Shown piece after piece: positions 3,890 through 58,900 of a stretch of 64,000 bases of DNA (positions are counted from its first letter, which is position 1; each line of letters opens with the position of its first letter). The notes under the pieces were generated by a model that made no database searches, was not told the origin of the DNA, and was given only the letters and a program-made list of their open reading frames with translations. Source of the DNA: Squalus acanthias. Taxonomy: Eukaryota. Where the stretch lies: contig CM059438.1 in NCBI GenBank assembly GCA_030390025.1, forward strand, positions 10,850,001 through 10,914,000. The letters are read 5' to 3'. The translations under genes and the position numbers were made by a program.

Positions 3890-4335
3890 TGGCTCAGTGG
3901 CAGGGGACCGTACAGGTCAGCGGGGATTGCAGGTTTGTCTCTGATCAGCGTTGAGTTAGTTGATCTCAGCTGGGGCAACAGTCGACTTTAATGCTCCTGG
4001 GCTAAAAGGTCCAAAAGAAAATAGCCTGGGTTCGTGCTCATGATTATTAACCTGTGACTATTGCCGACAAATGTGTGGGTGTGGACGATGGGCGAAGACA
4101 GGATTTGGATCAAGGCGATGCTGTCCATGGTCAAATAGCCTTACTGTCTAGGCTTATATGTGAAGAATGGCCTCATGAATAGGGTACCAGAGGACTGCTG
4201 GTACCAACCCATGGAGCTGTACCAACCCATGGAGCTGTACCAACCCATGGAGCTGTACCAACCCATGGAGCTGTACCAACCCATGGAGCTGTACCAACCC
4301 ATGGAGCTGTACCAACATACATCGGCACACTGAGA
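3890..4335 (+). mobile_element. Copy of an abundant tRNA-headed SINE-like family (GAGTTAGCTGATCTCAGC type)
   Basis: Motifs shared with copies near 11220, 18540, 41040, 57900 and 61720. Confidence 0.6.
4201..4316. repeat. 18-bp tandem repeat (GTACCAACCCATGGAGCT) x6.4
   Basis: Perfect copies visible; source of the WYSSMG-repeat ORF. Confidence 0.95.
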
Positions 4336-23500: not shown

Positions 23501-24589
23501 AAGGTCATCATCATAAGACAAAGCTCTTTTTTTATTTATATATAAACGCATTTTAAAACTGCAAACGGGCACATTTAGAATGGGTCAAATTTCCAACCTT
23601 CACAGCAAACTGTCTGCGCCAACTAAAGGGATCACTGATACCAAACATGCGTCAGCACAGCCACACACCAGATTAATTAGCTACGACAGTCGTATCTACT
23701 TGGAATGCAAACAGGGTGCAGGTCTATTGATGAATGAATCGCATTCTCGGTGCCAGCTTATAGCTTGCCCGTACAGATTTCTAGTCTTGGGGCAAGCCAA
23801 GGTCTTTTCCATGGAAAAGATGAGGTAAGGAAACAGCAGCTTCATAAAGAGCTTTCAGGAAACCGTCTCATTTCCTTTTGCAAACAAACAGTACAAGGAT
23901 ACAGCGCACATGATGTCATTGGGACACGGCCCCCCACCCCCCAAAAAAAATCCAAGAGTTTTTGAAAAACTTTTTCGCAAAGGAGGTACCTGTTTAAAAT
24001 GTTCCAGAATCTTCATGAGCGACACCACAGAAGACTTGTTTGCAATTCACAAAACTTACAGGAGGTGAAAAGAATTGTGTGCGGCTTTCAGGCCTCATTA
24101 TACTTTTCTTAAACTACTTCAACATTATTATTTTTTTTTTTAAAAGAACAGCGCAATTCATAAAGCCAGACCAGCAAGGTCTATTTTCCAAGTGAGGTGC
24201 AATTAGCTGCTGTTTAATAATTAATTGTGTGTGTGCGTGTCACGCCCTTTAAAACACAGACACACCTACGTGTGTTTGCCAACCTGAATGGGTTTGGAAT
24301 TTGTCACTCTCACTGATCGTAAAGACTACTGCCAATAATTTAATGTCACTAGTTTCATAGTGCTGTTAGTGGGATCTCACGATTACCCTTACTGAAGATC
24401 TCTCACTCTCATTTTCCCTCATACTAAGGAGCTGCCTCACATACTCTCCCATTTACTGGAGTTTTCTCGATCAATCCTTCCCCATTATCGGGGTATTTCC
24501 ATTGCATTTTCCTCGTTACTGCAGATCTCACTTATTGCTTCCCCATTTCTTAGGGTCTCTCATTCTATCCCATTTTCTGAGGATTTTCC

Positions 24590-25400
24590 CCATTACTGGG
24601 GTCTCGCCCTCAATATCTCCCATTACTGGGGTCTCGCCCTCAATATCTCCCCTTATTACTGGGGTCTCTCCTCAATATCTCCCCTCATTACTGGGGGTCT
24701 CTCCCTCTATCTCTCCCCTCATTACTGGGGTCTCACCCTCAATCTCTCCCCTCATTACTGGGGTCTCGCCTCAATCTCTCCCCTCATTACTGGGGGTCTC
24801 GTCCTCAATCTCTCCCCTCATTACTGGGGGTCTCTCCTCAATCTCTCCCCTCATTACTGGGGGTCTTGTCCTCAATCTCCCCCCTCATTACTGGGGGTCT
24901 CTCCTCAATCTCTCCCCTCATTACTGGGGGTCTCGTCCTCAATCTCTCCCCTCATTACCGGGGGGGTCTCCTCAATCTCTCCCCTCATTACTGGGGGTCT
25001 CTCCTCAATCTCTCCCCTCATTACTGGGGGTCTCTCCTCAATCTCTCCCCTCATTACTGGGGGTCTCTCCTCAATCTCTCCCCTCATTACTGGGGGTCTT
25101 GTCCTCAATCTCTCCCCTCATTACTGGGGTCTCTCCTCAATCTCTCCCCTCATTACTGGGGGTCTCTCCTCAATATCTCCCCTCATTACTGGGGGTCTCA
25201 CCCTCAATCTCTCCCCTCATTACTGGGGGTCTCACCCTCAATCTCTCCCCTCATTACTGGGGGTCTCACCCTCAATCTCTCCCCTCATTACTGGGGGTCT
25301 CTCCTCAATCTCTCCCCTCATTACTGGGGGTCTCTCCTCAATCTCTCCCCTCATTACTGGGGGTCTCACCCTCAATATCTCCCCTTTTCTGGGGGGGGTC
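24590..25400. repeat. Minisatellite, ~24 copies of a 30-34 bp unit (CTCAATCTCTCCCCTCATTACTGGGGGTCTCTC)
   Basis: Directly visible tandem units; degenerate precursor-like copies extend left to about 24390. Explains the repetitive ORFs at 24502-25519. Confidence 0.95.
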
Positions 25401-25616
25401 CTTCCCCTCATGACAGATGATCTCTCCTTCACTCTCTCCATTTCTGGGGGTCTCCCTCCATCCCTCGGGGTTTCTGCTTCAGTAAACCGGTCCAGCGTGG
25501 CCTTTGCCGGTTCCCTCATTGCTTCGCCCTGTGCAGCGCCTCTGATTGCCCCGGTAAGGCCGGGAGTCGAGCGCCGGGCGGTGCAGTGCGCTCAGGCCCT
25601 CCCGGGTCCCACTCAC

Positions 25617-25800
25617 CTCAGAGCGCGCCTCAGGACATCGTGAAGCTCTCAGCCCCGGCTCCCGCAAGGCGCCACCCGCCTCACAACTCGGACTCGCATC
25701 GACAACTGACACCAACATACGCTCATTCACACCATCCGCCGCCGGCCCGGGCTCCTCAAGCTGGTACACGGGTGAGACTCCGAGCCGCATGGGGGCAGCG
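25617..25800 (-). other. GPAM: Candidate first (5'UTR) exon of GPAM; 5' boundary uncertain
   Basis: CpG-rich segment ending in a consensus donor GAG|gtgagt at 25617/25616, oriented towards the GPAM coding exons. Confidence 0.55.
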
Positions 25801-25812
25801 TACCTTCGACCA

Positions 25813-26600
25813 GGCTCCTCCCAGCCGCAGGGTGGCGCTGTGCCCTCTCCTCCCAACCGCAGGGTGGCGCTGTGCCCTCTCCTCCCAACCGCAGGGTGGC
25901 GCTGTGTCCTCTCCTCCCAGCCGCAGGGTGGCGCTGTGTCCTCTCCTCCCAGCCGCAGGGTGGCGCTGTGTCCTCTCCTCCCAGCCACAGGGTGGCGCTG
26001 TGTCCTCTCCTCCTAGCCGCAGGGGGGCGCTGTGGCCTCTCCTCCCAGCCGCAGGGTGGCGCTGTGCCTGCTCCTCCCAGCCGCAGGGTGGCGCTGTGCC
26101 TGCTCCTCCCAGCCGCAGGGTGGCGCTGTGCCCGCTCCTCCCAGCCGCAGGGTGGCGCTTTCAGCTCCTCCTAGCCGCAGGGTGGTGCTGTGCCCGCTCC
26201 TCCCAGCCGCAGGGTGGCGCTGTGCCCTCTCCTCCCAGCCGCAGGGTGGCGCTGTGGCCTCTCATCCCAGCCGCAGGGTGGCGCTGTGTCTGCTCCTCCC
26301 AGCCGCAGGGTGGCGATGTGGCCTCTCCTCCCAGCCGCAGGGTGGCGCGTTCAGCTCCTCCCAGCCGCAGGGTGGCGCTGTGCTCTCTCCTCCCAGCCGC
26401 AGGGTGGCGCGTTCAGCTCCTCCCAGCCGCAGGGTGGCGCTGTGCTCTCTCCTCCCAGCCGCAGGGTGGCGCGTTCAGCTCCTCTCAGCCGCAGGGTGGC
26501 GCTATGTCCGCTCCTCCCAGCCGCAGGGTGGCGCTGTGCTCTCTCCTCCCAGCCGCAGGGTGGCGCGTTCAGCTCCTCTCAGCCGCAGGGTGGCGCTGTA
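25813..26600 (+). repeat. Minisatellite, 25 copies of a 32/30-bp unit (CTCCTCCCAGCCGCAGGGTGGCGCTGTGNCCT), each with a CTCF-like motif
   Basis: Core CCGCAGGGTGGCGC counted 25 times, from 25825 to 26583, at 32 or 30 bp spacing. Confidence 0.95.
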
Positions 26601-26922
26601 GCCGGTTCCAACTCACTCAATTTTCAGCAGCTTCGTCTGATGTGATTTGGAATGTGTATTCATGTTTTTTGCTGTTTCAGGCAGACACAGAGTGATACTG
26701 TATGATTGGTCGTGCATTATTCTGATCGCGGTTTGATTTTCATTTCTTCACATTGAAGTGGTTGAGAATGCGGCCTAGCTTTCATGCCAAGATGGCGGCT
26801 GTGGGAGGGCCCTGGGCCCGCCATGTTCCCCAGGCTCCCCCTGCGACCACAACCGCAGCCCAGCTCCCCAAACACACTGAACACGGGGCCCAGAGAGCAA
26901 GTGCTGCTTCACTCGGGCTCCA

Positions 26923-26961
26923 ATGGAAGTGAACGTGGGTCAGTGGAGAAAGGAAGGACAG
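26923..26961 (+). CDS. SFXN4: SFXN4 exon 1 (MEVNVGQWRKEGQ)
   Basis: ATG at 26923 with an in-frame upstream TGA at 26878; donor CAG|gtaact. Similar to human EPNVRFWITERQ. Confidence 0.8.
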
Positions 26962-29900
26962 GTAACTGTGATTAAATAGATCAGTGATTGATAGAGTGGA
27001 GGTTGTAACTGGAGGACGTTGATGAGATAAGAGGGTGAAGCAAGGTCGTGGAGGGATTTGTGAATGAGGATGCAGAATTTGAATTCTTTCCATTGGAGGA
27101 CAAGGGTGCTAGATGAGCAGGACTGAATACGGAACAGGATCCGAGCCACAACACCTTGTGGATGTGCTCTTGCATTAGAAAGAACACCAGCAACCCTTTA
27201 GGGGGCTATTAATTGGTTAAACAACAACTTGTTAGCAGACTCAATCGTGGTTTTCAAGAGGGAATTGGATAAGTACCTGAAGGATAAAAAATTGCAGGGC
27301 TACGGGGAAAGGGCTGGGAGTGGGACTAGCTGAAGTGCTCTTGCAGAGAGCTGGCACGGGCTCGACAGGCCGAATGGCCTCCTTCTGTGCTGTAACCATT
27401 CTATTATTATTTCTCTATTATTCTATAACTTGCATTTATATAGTGCCTTTAATGTAGTAAAACGTCCCAAGGTGCCTCATAGACAGGAGTGTTAGAAAAC
27501 AAAAATTTGACACTGCCATATTGGGAGATATTAGGGCAGATGACCAAAAGCTTGGTCAAAGAGGTGGGTTTTAAGGAGCGTCTCAAAGGCGGAGAGGTTT
27601 AAGGAGGAAATTCCAGAGCTTAGGCCATTGGCAGCTGAAGGCACAGCCGCCAATGGTTGAGCGATTTATAATCAGGGATGCGCAAGAGACCAGAATTAGA
27701 GGAGCACAGATATCTCAGGGGTTGTGGGGCTGAAGGTGACTACAGAGAGAGGGAGGGGCGAGGCCATGGAGGGATTTGAAAACAAGGATGATAATTTTGA
27801 AATCGAGGCGTTGCTTAACCAGGAGTCAATGTAGGTCAGTGAGGATGGGTGAACAGGACTTGGTGCGGGTTAGGACAAATGCAGCTGAGTTTTGGATGAC
27901 ATAACTAATACTTTAACCAATTAATAGCCCTTGAAGGGTTGCTGGTGTTCTTTATAATGTAATAAGACATCCACAAGCTGTTGTGGCTCGGATCCTGTTC
28001 CGTATTCAGTCCTGCTCATCTGGCACCCTTGTCCTCCAATGGAAAGAATTCAAATTCTGCATCCTCATTCACAAATCCCTCCACGACCTTGCTTCACTCT
28101 CTTATCTCTGCAACGTCCTCCAGCCTAACATCCCAGTCACAACCTCCACTCTTCTGAGCCTGAATTATTGTGTCTGCTCCCCTGCAGCCATGGTGGCCTC
28201 TGATAACTATGGTTATGGTTGGTGCGATATTTGGTCAAATGCTGCCTTAATTACTGGCACCTCTCCTCTGGTAACTAAACTTTGCTAACTTCTGAGTTGT
28301 TAAAAATAAGAACTACAAGGAAAATACTTTTTTTCGTAACAGAGTGTTTGTAACATGTTTACATCCAACAATGAAAGCTTGCAGAAAAAATAGCTTAATG
28401 GGAAAACCTATTGACTTTTGTTGCTTTTGACTGCACAGTACTTTCAAGTATCTCTTAATTGGTGAAAATGTTTCCGCTCCACAAATAATAAACTACAGTC
28501 ATTTTATAAATCTACTTTTGTTTATGTTCTTATTGGACTTAGTTTGATTGTTGTGTTCTGTAGTCCTTCTTCCATAGGTTTCTTCAATGGCTGGATATCC
28601 TGGACCCTACAACATTATTAGCATCAAACGTAAGCAGAGTTTTATTTAAAACAGATGTGATTACATGTAGAATTATGAATAATTGAGTTTTTTTTACTGA
28701 AGGGGTTTGAATGATGTTGTAAACCAGTGAGATTCGTCGTACTTCATTACAAGAGGATTTGAGTACAGGAGTAAAGAAGTCTTACTCCAATATATAGGGC
28801 CTTGGTGAGACCACACCTGGAGTACTGTGCACAATTTTGGTCTCCTTACCGAAGGAAGGATATACTTGCCATAGAGGGAGTGCAACGAAGGTTCACGAGA
28901 TTGATTCCTGGGATGGCGGGACTGTCGTATGAGAAGAGATTGAGTAAACTAGGCCTGTATTCTCTTGAATTCAGAAGAATGAGAGGGGATCTCATTGAAG
29001 CATACAAAATTATTATAGGGCTTGATAGGGTGGATGCTGAGAGAATGTTTCCCTTGGCTGGGGAGTCGAGAACCAGGGGCCACAGCCTCAGAATAAAGGG
29101 TAGGCCATTCAGGACTGAGATGAGAAGAAATTTCTTCACACAGAGGGTGGTGAATCTTTGGAACTCTCTACCCCAGAGGGCTGTGGAGGCTCAGTCATTG
29201 GGTATATTCAAAACAGAAGTCGATAGATTTCTGACTAGTAAGGGCATCAAGGGATATGGTGATAGGGCCGGTGAATGGAGTTGAGGCAGAAGATCAGCCA
29301 TGATCTCATTGAATGGCGGAGCAGGCTCGAAGGGCCGAATGGCCGACTCCTGCTCCTATTTCTTATGTATAGGCACTCCACACAGCCAGAGGCCATTGGC
29401 ATCCCAACTTTTTGTCATCTGTGACCCTTGATTGATCTGCTCATAAACCATACAGTTGTGGGATGTTGCCAGAGCCGGGCTTCACCGCCATTCTCAGTTT
29501 CTTAACTCCAGTGAGAGAAAGTACAGGAAAACTATTTGGAAATAGGACTATCCCAGCATCTGTAGAATGTGAAAGGGCCAAAAGGCAACACTGCACTCCA
29601 TGGAGTCATGAGTGTAGACCTGTGTCCCTTTACTCTGTTGCTCTATGCGGCAGCGGGTTTTGACATGTAATAGCCTCCCTCAAGCACGGCACTGCATGGT
29701 ATTATAGTCTTCTACAAAAAGTCAGTAGCACTCTCCTAGATAGGAAGAAAGCTCATGTACTTTGTAGCTGTTCTCGTGTTCTACAATTCAACAAAAACAA
29801 TAAGAACTTGTATATATCTAACGCCTTTAACATAGTAAAACGTCCCATGGCGCTTCACAGGAGCATTATGAAACAAAATTTGACACCGAGCCACACATAA

Positions 29901-38900: not shown

Positions 38901-41900
38901 TGACATCCACTTCCTGCAGGGGTTGCTTGATGGAAAATAATAATTCAAAAATTGCTGTGGCTATTTACTTCAGCAGTCCGAAGTGAGTTTTGCACTATAC
39001 ACAAAACATTTGGGACGATTTATTTTCATGTTTTATTGGAAATGGTTAATTTTTTTTTTAACTTTTTTTAAAATTAGGTTTTCCCTCAGTTTGTGATGCA
39101 TCGCTATGGATCAAACAGTCCTGCAATGTACACTCTGTTCAGAAAGATTCTGCCAGTTCCTGTACTTGGTAAGTAGAAAATTGGTTGCAACAGTCAGACA
39201 GGGCACCAGGACCATTGTTCTTGGGAATCACACTGGCACACTATTGCAGTAAGAGGTTGAGATGAATGTACATTGTTGAAGGGGACCTTACCCTACACCT
39301 ACATCACGTCTACTTGATAATGACACTGGGGACAGAGTAGGAAGGTGTATGGGTGCAAATTTACTTCCTATTAAAAGAAATGGCACACTTTCTAACTTTA
39401 ATATAAGGGCCACATTAAGGCACAACATCAATAGTGTGAAGTGGCAATTTGTTCTGCAGACTATGTTAACATTTCAGGTTTAGGTTTTGTGTTTCTTTAC
39501 TGCTATAATTTTCAGTCAAGCTGTTTAGTATGACTCCACTGCACCACAAACCAAGCTGGGGAGCTTTCTCTACAGGGTCGGAGACAATTGGAGTGAAGAT
39601 TGCCTCTGGCTTTTGGCTGAAGAGTATTCGAGTGCTTGAAGAAGCAGCTAAATTGCCCGCTGTCTCACTCCAGGGATTGTGGGGAGAGATGTGAAGGGGT
39701 GGAGATTAATTTTTCTGTCCCTCTGCCTTTTAATCACTACTAGAAAGCATGAGAAAAAGTCAAGATGATTTTCCCATCAATTTTTCTGGGAAAGTGCCCA
39801 GGTTTGACTAGCTGTAATTTATTGGTGTCTATCATGCGTTAAGGGGATGATTTTAACCCTACTCGCTCAGCAGAAACCTGGCAGGTGGGCAGTTAAAATT
39901 GCCCTGGCTCTTACCTGTCCAAAAGCCGCCATGATCGCAAGATCTGCAACTTTAACCTGCTCTTCTGAGCAGGCAGCAAGGACAGGCGCCCCAAGCCAAC
40001 AGGGTCCTTCTTACATATGCATGTTGCAGCCCAGTGACATCATTGAGACTGGACTGTAATTTTAACTCTGGCTTGAGCGGGGAATCCACTTGGAGTTAAA
40101 ATCGGGGCCTAAAGAAGGATTCATAGTATGCGATAAGCTACAAATTACTTGATGCTTCTGGTTTTCATACTTGTTTAGGACCTGTTTTTATTTCACGGCT
40201 CTCTTTCCTAACAGCAATTGCAAGTGCTTTCAATGTGGCAGCAGTTAGAGGCTTTGAATTTGAAAAAGGAATTGAAGTTGCAGATAAAAATGGAAACGTG
40301 GTAGGAGTCTCTCAGATAGCTGGAACTAAGGTAAGGGTATGATAATGTAGTGGACTAACAGACCAAAGTTTGAGAGTTCATACCTCGGCACGGCATTTTG
40401 TAAAATTGAATTCAATTTGCAAACCAGCACCAGAGATAATGACTAAATGCGACCAAATTGATGTAAAAACCTAACTTGTTCACTGGAACCTGCACAGTCT
40501 GGCCTACACATGATTCTAGTCCATACTATGTGGTTGACTGCTAATGCCCTCCTGAAGTGGCCTAGCAAACTGCACCTTCTAAAGGCAACTAAGGATAGGC
40601 AGTAGACGCGGCCTTGCCAGCATCACCCACATCCCAAGAACAAAATAAAAAAAACACTTCAAATCATAAATTCTTAAGCTACTTAATCCCCTTCATTTAA
40701 AAAAAAATGAGTGCATCTTTTGTCACTGTAGTTGCACATAGGTGAAGCCAAAGATTTGGAAGTTACTTCTGTTATCTCAGTATGATCATTAGCCTGTTGC
40801 CTGTGATGATTTCTCCATTCATTTCCCCAATGCTAGGGTCCTCTTGAGTCTCCACACTCTTACATATTTGCTGTTATTATTGACGTATTGCTGGTTCTAT
40901 TTGAGGTTTATCTTCTTCAATGTAGTAATATGGAATGAAAGCCAAAAAGAACAAAGACTAATAAAAATAAAATATTAAGCATCCTCAGGGGCTCATTTGG
41001 AAAGTTACCCAATAAAGTGTTGACTCGCATAGAACAAGAAAGTTCCAGGTTGCATTCTCAACCTATGCTAAGTCAATACATCTATGTCTAGGCAGTAGTT
41101 AAGGTGCTAGTAGTGAGTAGATTAGACCTATATTCTCTAGAGTTTGGAAGAATGAAAGGTGATCTCATTGAAACATATAAAATTCTTAGAGGGCCTGACA
41201 GGGTAGATGCTGGGAGGATGTTTCCCCTGGCTGGGGAGTCCAGAACCAGGGGTCACAGTCTCAGAATAAGGGGTCGGCCATTTAGGACTGAAATGAAGAG
41301 AGATTTCTTCACTCAAAGGGTTGTGAATCTTTGGAATTCTCTACCCCAGAGGGCTGTGGATGCTCAGTCGTTGAGTATATTCAAGACAGAGATCGATAGA
41401 TTTTCGGATACTAAGGGAATCAAGGGATATGGTGATAGTGCCGGAAGGTGGAGATGAGGTAGAAGATTAACCATGATCTTGGTGAATGGTGGAGCAGGCT
41501 CGAAGGGCCGAATGGCCGACTCCTGCTTCTAATTCTTATGTGCTACAATTGATCTCGGCTCCCCTTGGGTAAGGAGAGAAATAAGCCAGAGTTACTGGGC
41601 CTGATTACTTTCTGGTAACCATTGCTAGAAAGGGCAATGGGCATCAGATGAGGACAGAATTGGACTCTGCTGTGGTGCTCTATGCAGCTGCCCACTCTGG
41701 AATTCCCTCAAAATCTGTCCACCTCCCTCTCTCTTTTAAGACTCTCCTTTAAAACCCACCCATTGACCAAGCCTTTTGTCACCCTCCTATTCTATCTTTG
41801 GCTTGGCATCCGTTTCCCTCATACCTCGGAGAAGTGCATTGAGTCATTTTTCTATGTAAATGTATGTTGTTGGAAAAAGGCTGTTAAAATTGTGGGAAAT

Positions 41901-55924: not shown

Positions 55925-58900
55925 CTGAAAGGAACAATGAAAATGGAAGTCAACACAAAGGGGAACGAGTCTGGAATTTGTTGGCCCTGAATTCGCGGCC
56001 GGCGCCGTAGCTAAGGAGTACGCCGCCACCCGAACGAAATCGCACTTACCTCGAGCGAACCCCCCTTCGAAAAATTGCTTTCAGACGCTGCAGAGTTGTG
56101 CCCCACGGATCCCGGGGCCGCGCCGTTGTGCGTATACAAACCTGGGATCACGTGTTGCGGTGTTCCTTTCACTTCCTGACTCTTAACCAATCAGGAAACA
56201 GGAGATGGCTGATTTGCCCACAACTCATTTTAAATAATTTAGCAGCCAGAAATGCTATTTTATTAATAAATTACGATCAGTGCAATAGTATTTAATACAC
56301 AAACCGAGATTATAATACACAAACCTAGAATTACAGTCTCCTCTATTAGACTAACTTTTGATTAATTTAAATCATCTAAAATCGAGAGTTTAAATGTCCG
56401 ATAACATGAGGAAATCGTGAAAGTGAATTAAATCCTATCTAAATAGAAGTTGGGAAATAATTAAACCGAAACTACAAAAGGCGTTTGGGCAGCAAGGACG
56501 TGTGGCACAAAAAGACCCTGTTAAGAACATAAGAAATAGGAGCAGGAGTCGGCCATTCGGCCCTTCGAGCCTGCTCCGCCATTCAATGAGATCATGGCTG
56601 ATCTTCTGCCTCAACTCCATTCACCGGCCCTATCGCCATATCCCTTGATGCCTTTACTAGTCAGAAATCTATCGACTTCTGTTTTGAATATACCCAATGA
56701 CTGAGCCTCCACAGCCCTCTGGGGTAGAGAATTCCAAAGATTCACCACCCTCTGTGTGAAGAAATTTCTTCTCATCTCAGTCCTGAATGGCCTACCTTTT
56801 ATCCTGAGGCTGTGGCCCCTGGTTCTAGACTCCCCAGCCAAGGGAAACATTCTCCCAGCATCCACCCTATCAAGCCATGTAATAATTTTGTATGCTTCAA
56901 TGCGATCCCCTCTCATTCTTCTGAATTCAAGAGAATACAGGCCTAGTTTACTCAATCTCTTCTCATACGACAGTCCCGCCATCCCAGGAATCAATCTCGT
57001 GAACCTTCGTTGCACTCCCTCTATGGCAAGTATATCCTTCCTTAGGTAAGGAGACCAAAATTGTACACAGTACTCCAGGTGTGGTCTCACCAAGGCCCTA
57101 TATAATTGGAGTAAGACTTCTTTACTCCTGTACTCAAATCCTCTTGTAATAAAGGCCAGCATACCATTTGCCTTCCTAATGGCTTGCTGCACCTGCACAT
57201 TAATGTACAAGGACACCCAGGTCCCTTTGAGCATCTGCATTCCCCAATCTTTCACCATTTAGGAAATACTCTGCCTTTCTGTTTTTTCTACCAAAGTGGA
57301 TAACTTCACATTTATCCACATTATATTCCATCTGCCATGTTCTCGCCCACTCACTGAGCCTGTCGAGATCCCTTTGAAGTCTCTTCACATCCTCGTCACA
57401 ACTGACACTGCCACCTAGCTTTGTATCATCAGCAAATTTGGAAATGTTACATTTAGTCCCCTCATCCAAATCATTGATATAGATTGTGAATAGCTGTTTT
57501 CAAACTCGAACAAATTAAAGTTTCTTTCAGAGTTTGTATCCGCTCAGACACGAACCAATGCCTCATTGTAGCATAAACAAATACAATTTTCTCATCCCCC
57601 CCCCCCTCCCCTTATGCTATGCAACAGGCTCCTGTACCTGTTTGCACCAGACGCAAAACAATTTCAGGGTAATTGATGCGCAGTAGGTGGGCAATTAGCC
57701 CAACTTTTTGCCAGCACGTTGACTTGAATGGGTAGGGGAAACGTGCTGCAAAGCCGAATGCGCAGTCGGAATTTGACAGATCGCAAGTTCGGGATTTAGC
57801 GCATGGAAATCCCATACTTGCGTTCAATTTCAAAGGCAGTATGACGCCGTACCCTGAATTCAGGGCCTATTTTCACCTTTTGTTGAAATCTGCACCCTCG
57901 GCTCCCCTGACGGCTCTGCGACTGCGAGTATATCTAGTGTGTAACTAAGTCACACAAACCAGGAACGTCTTAAGTTTAATCCCCAATCAGTGCTGGAGTA
58001 GCTGATCTCAAATAGGACAATGGTTGGTGCGGCACCATTGGCCTCAGTACCCTGAACTATGGAGAGAAAAGTCAGCATTGGCTCTGCTCATTACCTCACG
58101 ATCAGCAACCCCTCCTGGAAGTGTACATGTGTGGACTTGGGTGAAGACAGACCTAGCACTGCCTATGTTGTTACCCATGCCTTAATGGCCTGGCAATACT
58201 GACCATTAAGGTTCATGTATGAATGCCAATGAGGCACAAAGACAAACTGTACCCCAGCATAAGAATCAACACCTTCAGGAGAGAGGAAAGAAAACTGACA
58301 AGCAAAGAATAAAGCTGCAACCTGAAGCAAACTAATTGGTTTTAACAATGATGCCTATGGCCTGGGTGGTGCAGTGGGTCAGCACATTGCCTTTTCACCT
58401 GCAGGACTGGGATTTGAATCCCATTTTAAAGGTCCTACATGATGGGAGTTGAGCAGTCTTAACCTAATTCCCAATGCGTTTGAACCCTCCGCACAGAATT
58501 TGTCAGTCTCACGCAGAGATCATTAAATAATCCACTGTGATATGGAATAATCCAATGTTTTCAGTCAATTAATCATAAAGGAAAATCTTCTGATTCTTAT
58601 CAGAGGCTTTATTTGCCTCCAATGGGAATTAAATAAATTGGGAAGAATCTATTCTGGTTTAGACTGTGCTTGTTCCCTCATAATTTCTCATCAATTGGAT
58701 CCTCAACTAAAATAAAATGGTACTTGTGTTGCCTCCACTCCACTGGATATTTTTATCATTTGTTGTCCATCCCTAGTTACCTGAGGAGATGATGGTAGAG
58801 GGCATTAAGCATCACATGTAAAGCAGGCTAGGTAGGGGTAGCAGGTTTACTTGCCTGAATGCTATTAGTGAATTAGTTGAGTTTTTAATGATAATCTGAG

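Follow-up and report, generated by a model that had tools for sequence, protein, structure and literature searches.

The window analysed is a stretch of 64,000 nucleotides of Squalus acanthias (assembly GCA_030390025.1, contig CM059438.1, positions 10,850,001 to 10,914,000 of the forward strand), and all positions below are counted from its first letter. The first two coding exons of GPAM (1287-1183 and 189-67) were found on the minus strand by tblastn, with 97% and 95% identity to sawshark GPAT1. A protein search with exon 189-67 returned 11 proteins, 10 of them named GPAT1 and the other an unnamed bamboo-shark protein with the same domains (best identity 93%); Pfam gave no match for the GPAM exons, and a PDB search with a GPAM exon gave none either. 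The coding exons of SFXN4 (26923-47625, plus strand) were located by tblastn with shark proteins, with the start codon at 26923 and the first donor at 26962. Nine of the ten proteins found with exon 40181-40330 were named sideroflexin-4. These homology searches agree with the flanking genes, GPAM (-) and SFXN4 (+), both mitochondrial, named in a preliminary description of this DNA. SFXN4 is followed on the minus strand by a DENN-type gene (Avl9, E 1.7e-4), which we take to be DENND10. The GPAM and SFXN4 matches share a chromosome in catshark and in Hypanus, which does not show adjacency. The human genes are presumably about 7 Mb apart, and the head-to-head order in the shark would then correspond to one inversion with its breakpoints at the 5' ends.

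The GPAM and SFXN4 coding exons are separated by a stretch that includes a CpG-island core (25481-25812; GC 67%), a probable promoter region. Its CpG observed/expected ratio is 0.92, compared with 0.54 in the adjoining array and 0.40 in the window background. The array, to the right of the island, is a CTCF-like minisatellite of 788 bp (25813-26600), consisting of 25 units of 32 or 30 bp; every unit carries a single CTCF-like site of 19 bp on the plus strand.

Array anatomy and neighbouring repeats

The array was identified by Tandem Repeats Finder at 25815-26599, with a period of 32, 24.8 copies and 88% matches. Across the 64-kb window its 14-bp core is present 25 times (chance expectation 1.64), every time on the plus strand within the array; 21 of the 25 occurrences are exact, and the other four (25985, 26017, 26175 and 26303) have one mismatch. 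Repeat finder and core search both bear out the same-strand array of 25 units that had been described at 25813-26600, and the variant units named at the time, the shared orientation of the sites and the placement of their CpGs are also as reported. The common orientation is automatic in a tandem repeat. A dispersed repeat was rejected, the core being absent from the rest of the window.

The complete units number 24, with a length of 32 bp in 19 and 30 bp in five, and one partial unit is added to them; in the 3' third of the array the two lengths alternate and form a 62-bp dimer. Seventeen of the 24 complete units are distinct, the mean difference among the 32-bp units is 8%, and five column pairs fail the four-gamete test. 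The incompatible column pairs, together with the number of distinct units, point to exchange between units or to recurrent mutation. Head-to-tail units of 10-100 bp with variant units interspersed define a minisatellite or VNTR, and the array is of this kind. Its DNA is about 72% GC, the linkers between sites are 11-13 bp long, and the array is known from one haplotype.

Two features were absent from the earlier inventory, a diverged 26th CTCF-like site (25782-25800, plus strand) and a neighbouring 33-bp array. The 26th site lies upstream of the first unit at a distance of 40 bp. Of its 19 columns, 13 are identical and six differ, for the most part at tolerant positions, and a score of 9.1 bits is retained (P 0.05). 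Having been found by similarity, it is not independent evidence. It is the sole site in the window with at most one mismatch to the H19-type pattern quoted in the preliminary description, from which the array unit differs by three mismatches.

The second minisatellite (24591-25385, 795 bp, 33 bp x 24), which serves as an internal control, lies beside the CpG island towards GPAM. The two arrays are almost equal in length and stand one on each side of the island. A CTCF motif was not found in the 33-bp array, where the best score was -3.8 bits, and a motif-free twin beside the island suggests that the promoter region spawns minisatellites with or without a CTCF motif. The 32-bp period, for which a length of about three helical turns had been pointed out, is uninformative, because the motif-free neighbour repeats at a similar interval and five of the 24 units measure 30 bp. 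The 33-bp array is almost without CpG, is G-rich on the GPAM sense strand, and lies within the probable first intron of GPAM.

CTCF motif match and sequence variation

Sites were scored with a CTCF count matrix taken to be that of JASPAR MA0139.1; the column sums are consistent, and a literature search did not find a printed source of the numbers. The commonest site, present in 13 of the 25 units and here called the main unit, scores 12.7 bits (p 1.2e-5) against a uniform background and 8.4 bits (p 1.2e-4) against a background of 70% GC. With this matrix all 25 sites reach at least 8 bits, a cut-off that was used for skate CTCF sites (PMC10115646), and 20 of them at least 10 bits. At p<1e-4 the number of array sites is 21 of 25 with the uniform background, 25 of 25 with the window background and 4 of 25 with 70% GC. 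The main unit stands at the 16th percentile of sites sampled from the matrix, from which it departs at columns 6, 8 and 9. The expectation of a strong plus-strand hit in each unit was borne out as far as a hit of at least 8 bits in every unit is concerned, but by this matrix its strength is moderate. The upstream ZF9-11 motif was not seen at a spacing of 17-18 nt (by eye, against a consensus pattern). Outside the array, 14 sites in the window reach at least 8 bits, the 26th site included, and two of these score as high as the main unit.

Since the copies in the array represent one event, a single unit is the right null. The main-unit score was reached by 0.46% of the mononucleotide shuffles of the unit (20000 in all) and 1.0% of its dinucleotide shuffles (10000 in all), by 2 of 591 circularised 32-mers of the island and by 2 of 3846 32-mers of the window, and 0.4% of 20000 column-shuffled decoy matrices matched as well. 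The CTCF likeness of the unit exceeds composition, yet similar matches would recur by chance across a genome. The CTCF motif is described as near-identical from lamprey to mammals (PMC5504073) and should therefore hold for sharks, and skates are reported to use a CTCF orientation code (PMC10115646). Binding of CTCF to the array is plausible. By the usual orientation convention the array sites presumably face SFXN4. CTCF ChIP-seq data for a shark are reportedly found in Hara et al. 2018.

According to the preliminary description, variation is concentrated in the spacer, which would mark the core as conserved. In the 19 long units, invariant columns make up 12 of 19 in the core versus 8 of 13 in the spacer, and the distinct alleles number seven versus six (binomial P 0.44); what is confined to four spacer columns (22-25) is the common variants. 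Rotations of the 19-bp window that are as conserved as the core amount to 10 of 32, and for columns 4-17 to 4 of 32. The difference between core and spacer is not significant, and core conservation was rejected as evidence of selection. The seven core variants are mild, with a mean cost of 0.19 bits versus 3.1 bits for random changes (P 0.008-0.018). This signal comes from one of several tests run; its P is 0.02 with the changes of the 30-bp units added, but weakens to 0.05-0.06 when singletons are taken and to 0.04-0.08 within columns 4-17. A single unit among 25 should be almost invisible to selection.

The two CpGs of the unit fall on matrix columns 5 and 15, a distance of 10 bp. Decay was seen in 2 of 50 core CpGs, a count that rejects a 10-fold CpG mutation rate (P 0.028) and does not reject a 5-fold rate (P 0.23). 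Two positions of the CTCF motif have been linked to methylation (Wang 2012, PMC3431485), and by a numbering map that we infer the CpGs of the unit correspond to them; with this spacing, CTCF binding would probably be methylation-sensitive.

Promoter layout

Splice sites were scored with general splice-site frequencies. A putative non-coding first exon of GPAM (25617-25770, minus strand) has a strong donor at 25616, its 5' end being a guess, and implies a first intron of about 24 kb (about 1290-25617) between this putative exon and the first coding exon. Within the same putative exon, at 25664-25677, the right half of the array core recurs in part and inverted; the left half is missing from this copy, which gives no CTCF match. 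Upstream GPAM exons were also sought with the N-terminal extensions of six homologs, with only a weak match at 23648-23619. Here ten codons on the minus strand match the N-terminal extension of catshark GPAM isoform X1 at 7 of 10, without a donor, and may be a decayed alternative exon or a chance match.

Two layouts were considered for the start of SFXN4. In one of them the gene would start to the right of the array, and a candidate core promoter at 26705-26797 (plus strand) speaks for it, with a reverse CCAAT box at 26705-26709 and a YY1-type motif at 26789-26797 (by consensus), as does the minimum of the cumulative GC skew at 26634. In the other, for which the position of the CpG island to the left of the array speaks, SFXN4 would start within the island, and the array would fill a possible 5'-UTR intron (25772-26680, plus strand), whose donor at 25772 scores 8.2 and whose unusually good acceptor at 26680 scores 12.3, acceptors of this class occurring at 0.07 per kb per strand. 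This second layout is judged the less probable one, though with a fair share of the probability, and with it the array could not separate the GPAM and SFXN4 promoters. A location of the array between the two first exons is thus a prediction from the sequence. Within the YY1-type motif, an ATG (26792, plus strand) stands in strong Kozak context and out of frame with SFXN4. Its reading frame extends beyond the start codon of SFXN4 (26923), and translation could be repressed by it in transcripts that include it; splicing to a weaker acceptor at 26833 would leave the ATG out.

Interpretation and related systems

The array is best explained, in a judgement in which confidence and doubt are about evenly balanced, as a young VNTR that was amplified from a promoter CTCF site and is probably bound as a clustered promoter-type site. 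A young, recombining minisatellite would have grown at the edge of a CpG island serving GPAM and SFXN4, and the DNA that gave rise to its 32-bp unit would already have contained a CTCF site, moderate in strength and with CpGs. The source was probably one of an older same-strand pair of sites, the other member of which would survive at 25782. Amplification would most likely be a by-product of local repeat instability, by slippage and unequal exchange. The array is probably unmethylated, and CTCF, joined by CTCFL in testis, would bind it as a clustered promoter-type site; once bound, it would help to maintain an open state of the region and may put up a modest barrier against cohesin that comes from the direction of SFXN4, with copies beyond the first few probably contributing little insulation. 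Clustered CTCF sites are described as typical of active promoters and as co-bound by CTCFL in germ cells (PMC4562119), and sharks are reported to have a testis-biased CTCFL with 11 zinc fingers (PMC7471279). Such a cluster is recognised where a CpG-island promoter holds two or more motifs within about 100 bp, an arrangement that the array has at a promoter predicted from the sequence.

A neutral, GC-rich minisatellite that resembles CTCF sites by chance and has no appreciable binding is a less probable alternative, but one of real weight. About 1% of composition-matched units score as high as the main unit, which would amount to many among the minisatellites of a genome, and the score is low for sites of this matrix, the core shows no greater conservation than the spacer, and the twin 33-bp array is without the motif. 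This is countered by the mild core variants, the retained 26th site and the low CpG decay, and 25 copies in a probably open CpG island would favour some occupancy. It is quite unlikely that other GC-box factors (KLF/SP-type CACCC or purine-rich G-run binders) use the array as a homotypic promoter or first-intron enhancer, with the CTCF match being incidental. There are 24 CACCC-box hexamers on the minus strand of the array, plus one on the plus strand at 25672 (25 in total), and the array adjoins the CpG island and is possibly within SFXN4 intron 1; a hexamer in DNA of 72% GC, however, carries little information, and the array was searched for longer KLF, GC-box, NRF1 and ETS consensus patterns without success. 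A REST site was rejected as well, the best match to a consensus having six mismatches.

The preliminary description had proposed a super-anchor, in which 25 sites of one orientation together stop cohesin strongly from one side, with looping to SFXN4/DENND10 and with copy number and methylation as means of tuning. The presumed one-inversion difference from the human gene order means that the GPAM-SFXN4 junction may be a boundary. In skate, TAD borders are reported to carry oriented CTCF motifs and most rearrangements to lie at TAD borders (PMC10115646), DXZ4 and ICCE are described as CTCF repeat anchors (PMC6125249), and in a Sox2 reporter insulation rises with the number of tandem boundary sites (10.1101/2020.07.07.192526). 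In the same reporter, however, the gains are reported to diminish once there are more than two sites, and tandem series of six or fifteen non-boundary sites attracted CTCF but gave no insulation, flanking context being required (10.1101/2020.07.07.192526); the flank in the array is 11-13 bp. Strong insulation by the array is doubtful for these two reasons. In addition, known superloop repeats are described with units of 3-5 kb (PMC6125249), the convergent minus-strand candidates to the right of the array (32698, 33814 and 58103) are at chance level, and the two start sites may not be on opposite sides of the array. Such an anchor is regarded as improbable. An elaborated form is held to be just as unlikely: one promoter CTCF site at an old rearrangement junction would have been amplified in one shark lineage to about 26 co-oriented, methylation-sensitive sites in 820 bp, making a one-way cohesin barrier that varies with allele length and with germ-line occupancy by CTCF versus CTCFL. 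If true, the locus would hold a natural allelic series for site number versus boundary strength, with a site density far above that of the kilobase-unit mammalian anchors. An architectural role of the array is unsupported so far, and at present the array counts as an ordinary promoter VNTR with a plausible CTCF motif.

The locus had also been put forward as the best candidate for an undescribed system, a claim that is not supported, since CTCF-bound promoter VNTRs and simple repeats are already described (PMC2848977, PMC5007689). The promoter VNTR of SLC6A4 (5-HTTLPR) resembles the array in its short, GC-rich promoter units with matches to the CTCF consensus; it was bound by CTCF in ChIP and EMSA, as reported together with a second VNTR (Stin2) in an intron of the same gene, and over-expression of CTCF left the activity of the LPR reporter unchanged (PMC2848977). 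As described there, its units are 22-23 bp long and belong to a single promoter, whereas the shark units hold a full 19-bp site in 25 of 25 cases and belong to a head-to-head gene pair. Repeats that CTCF and BORIS bind together number 171 and are mostly VNTR-like simple tandem repeats, plus TAR1 (Pugacheva 2016, PMC5007689). Some are long enough for one site per unit, as in the array, and their tandem layout clusters the sites; in these human K562 data staggered partial sites dominate, unlike in the shark array, and Table S2 lists neither unit sequences nor positions (PMC5007689). The 2xCTS are likewise groups of at least two close motifs, often on the same strand and 10-100 bp apart, and are enriched at active promoters with YY1 and Pol II (Pugacheva 2015, PMC4562119). 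According to that source they are usually unique sequence with about two motifs, whereas the shark has 25-26 motifs with linkers of 11-13 bp, made by amplification.

DXZ4, ICCE and Firre share with the array a CTCF motif in each tandem unit, and are described with methylation-linked binding and YY1 motifs (PMC6125249). By the same account they have units of 3-5 kb, are specific to the inactive X, and have a motif conserved across mammals and beyond the core; kilobase units mark macrosatellite superloop anchors, and the shark units of 30-32 bp fall outside this class. The HSV-1 elements CTRL1 and CTRL2 are short tandem repeats like the array, bind CTCF and are reported to block enhancers; they are viral and defined by a short C/T-rich pentamer, whereas the shark unit is a full 19-bp site (PMC2789235). 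Promoter-proximal CTCF that lies between opposed core promoters and acts independently of looping was described by Luan et al. (10.1101/2021.10.30.465508). As given in that preprint, single sites within about 100 bp of the start suppress non-coding antisense RNA, whereas the shark array is flanked by two protein-coding genes. The shark array is distinct in its density of one full site per 30-32 bp, in its host and in its head-to-head setting, and searches of the open-access literature that covered CTCF minisatellites of sharks, GPAM together with SFXN4, and promoter CTCF-motif minisatellite arrays returned nothing on this locus. If bound, it would show CTCF sites being multiplied outside mammals through the growth of a minisatellite and not through transposons, and would offer a natural test of whether a boundary results from many closely packed cores; synthetic arrays suggest that it need not.

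Several other kinds of element were examined and rejected. An Rfam scan of 24000-28000 for structured RNA gave one weak bacterial sRNA match (24.5 bits against a gathering threshold of 51 bits), which was taken as chance. As regards a hairpin, four units fold worse than 198 of 200 shuffles, and inverted repeats are short and scattered. The G4Hunter-type peak, calculated for G-quadruplexes, reaches 1.04 in the CTCF-like array and 1.24 in its 33-bp neighbour, which is unremarkable. Open frames in the array are repeat-derived only. Elsewhere in the window, two near-identical open frames (28775-29281, plus strand, and 56614-57258, minus strand) gave no Pfam match and have related fragments throughout the introns; they resemble the 3' end of a CR1/L2-type LINE. 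A perfect tandem repeat of 18 bp x 6.4 lies in a GPAM intron at 4201-4316.
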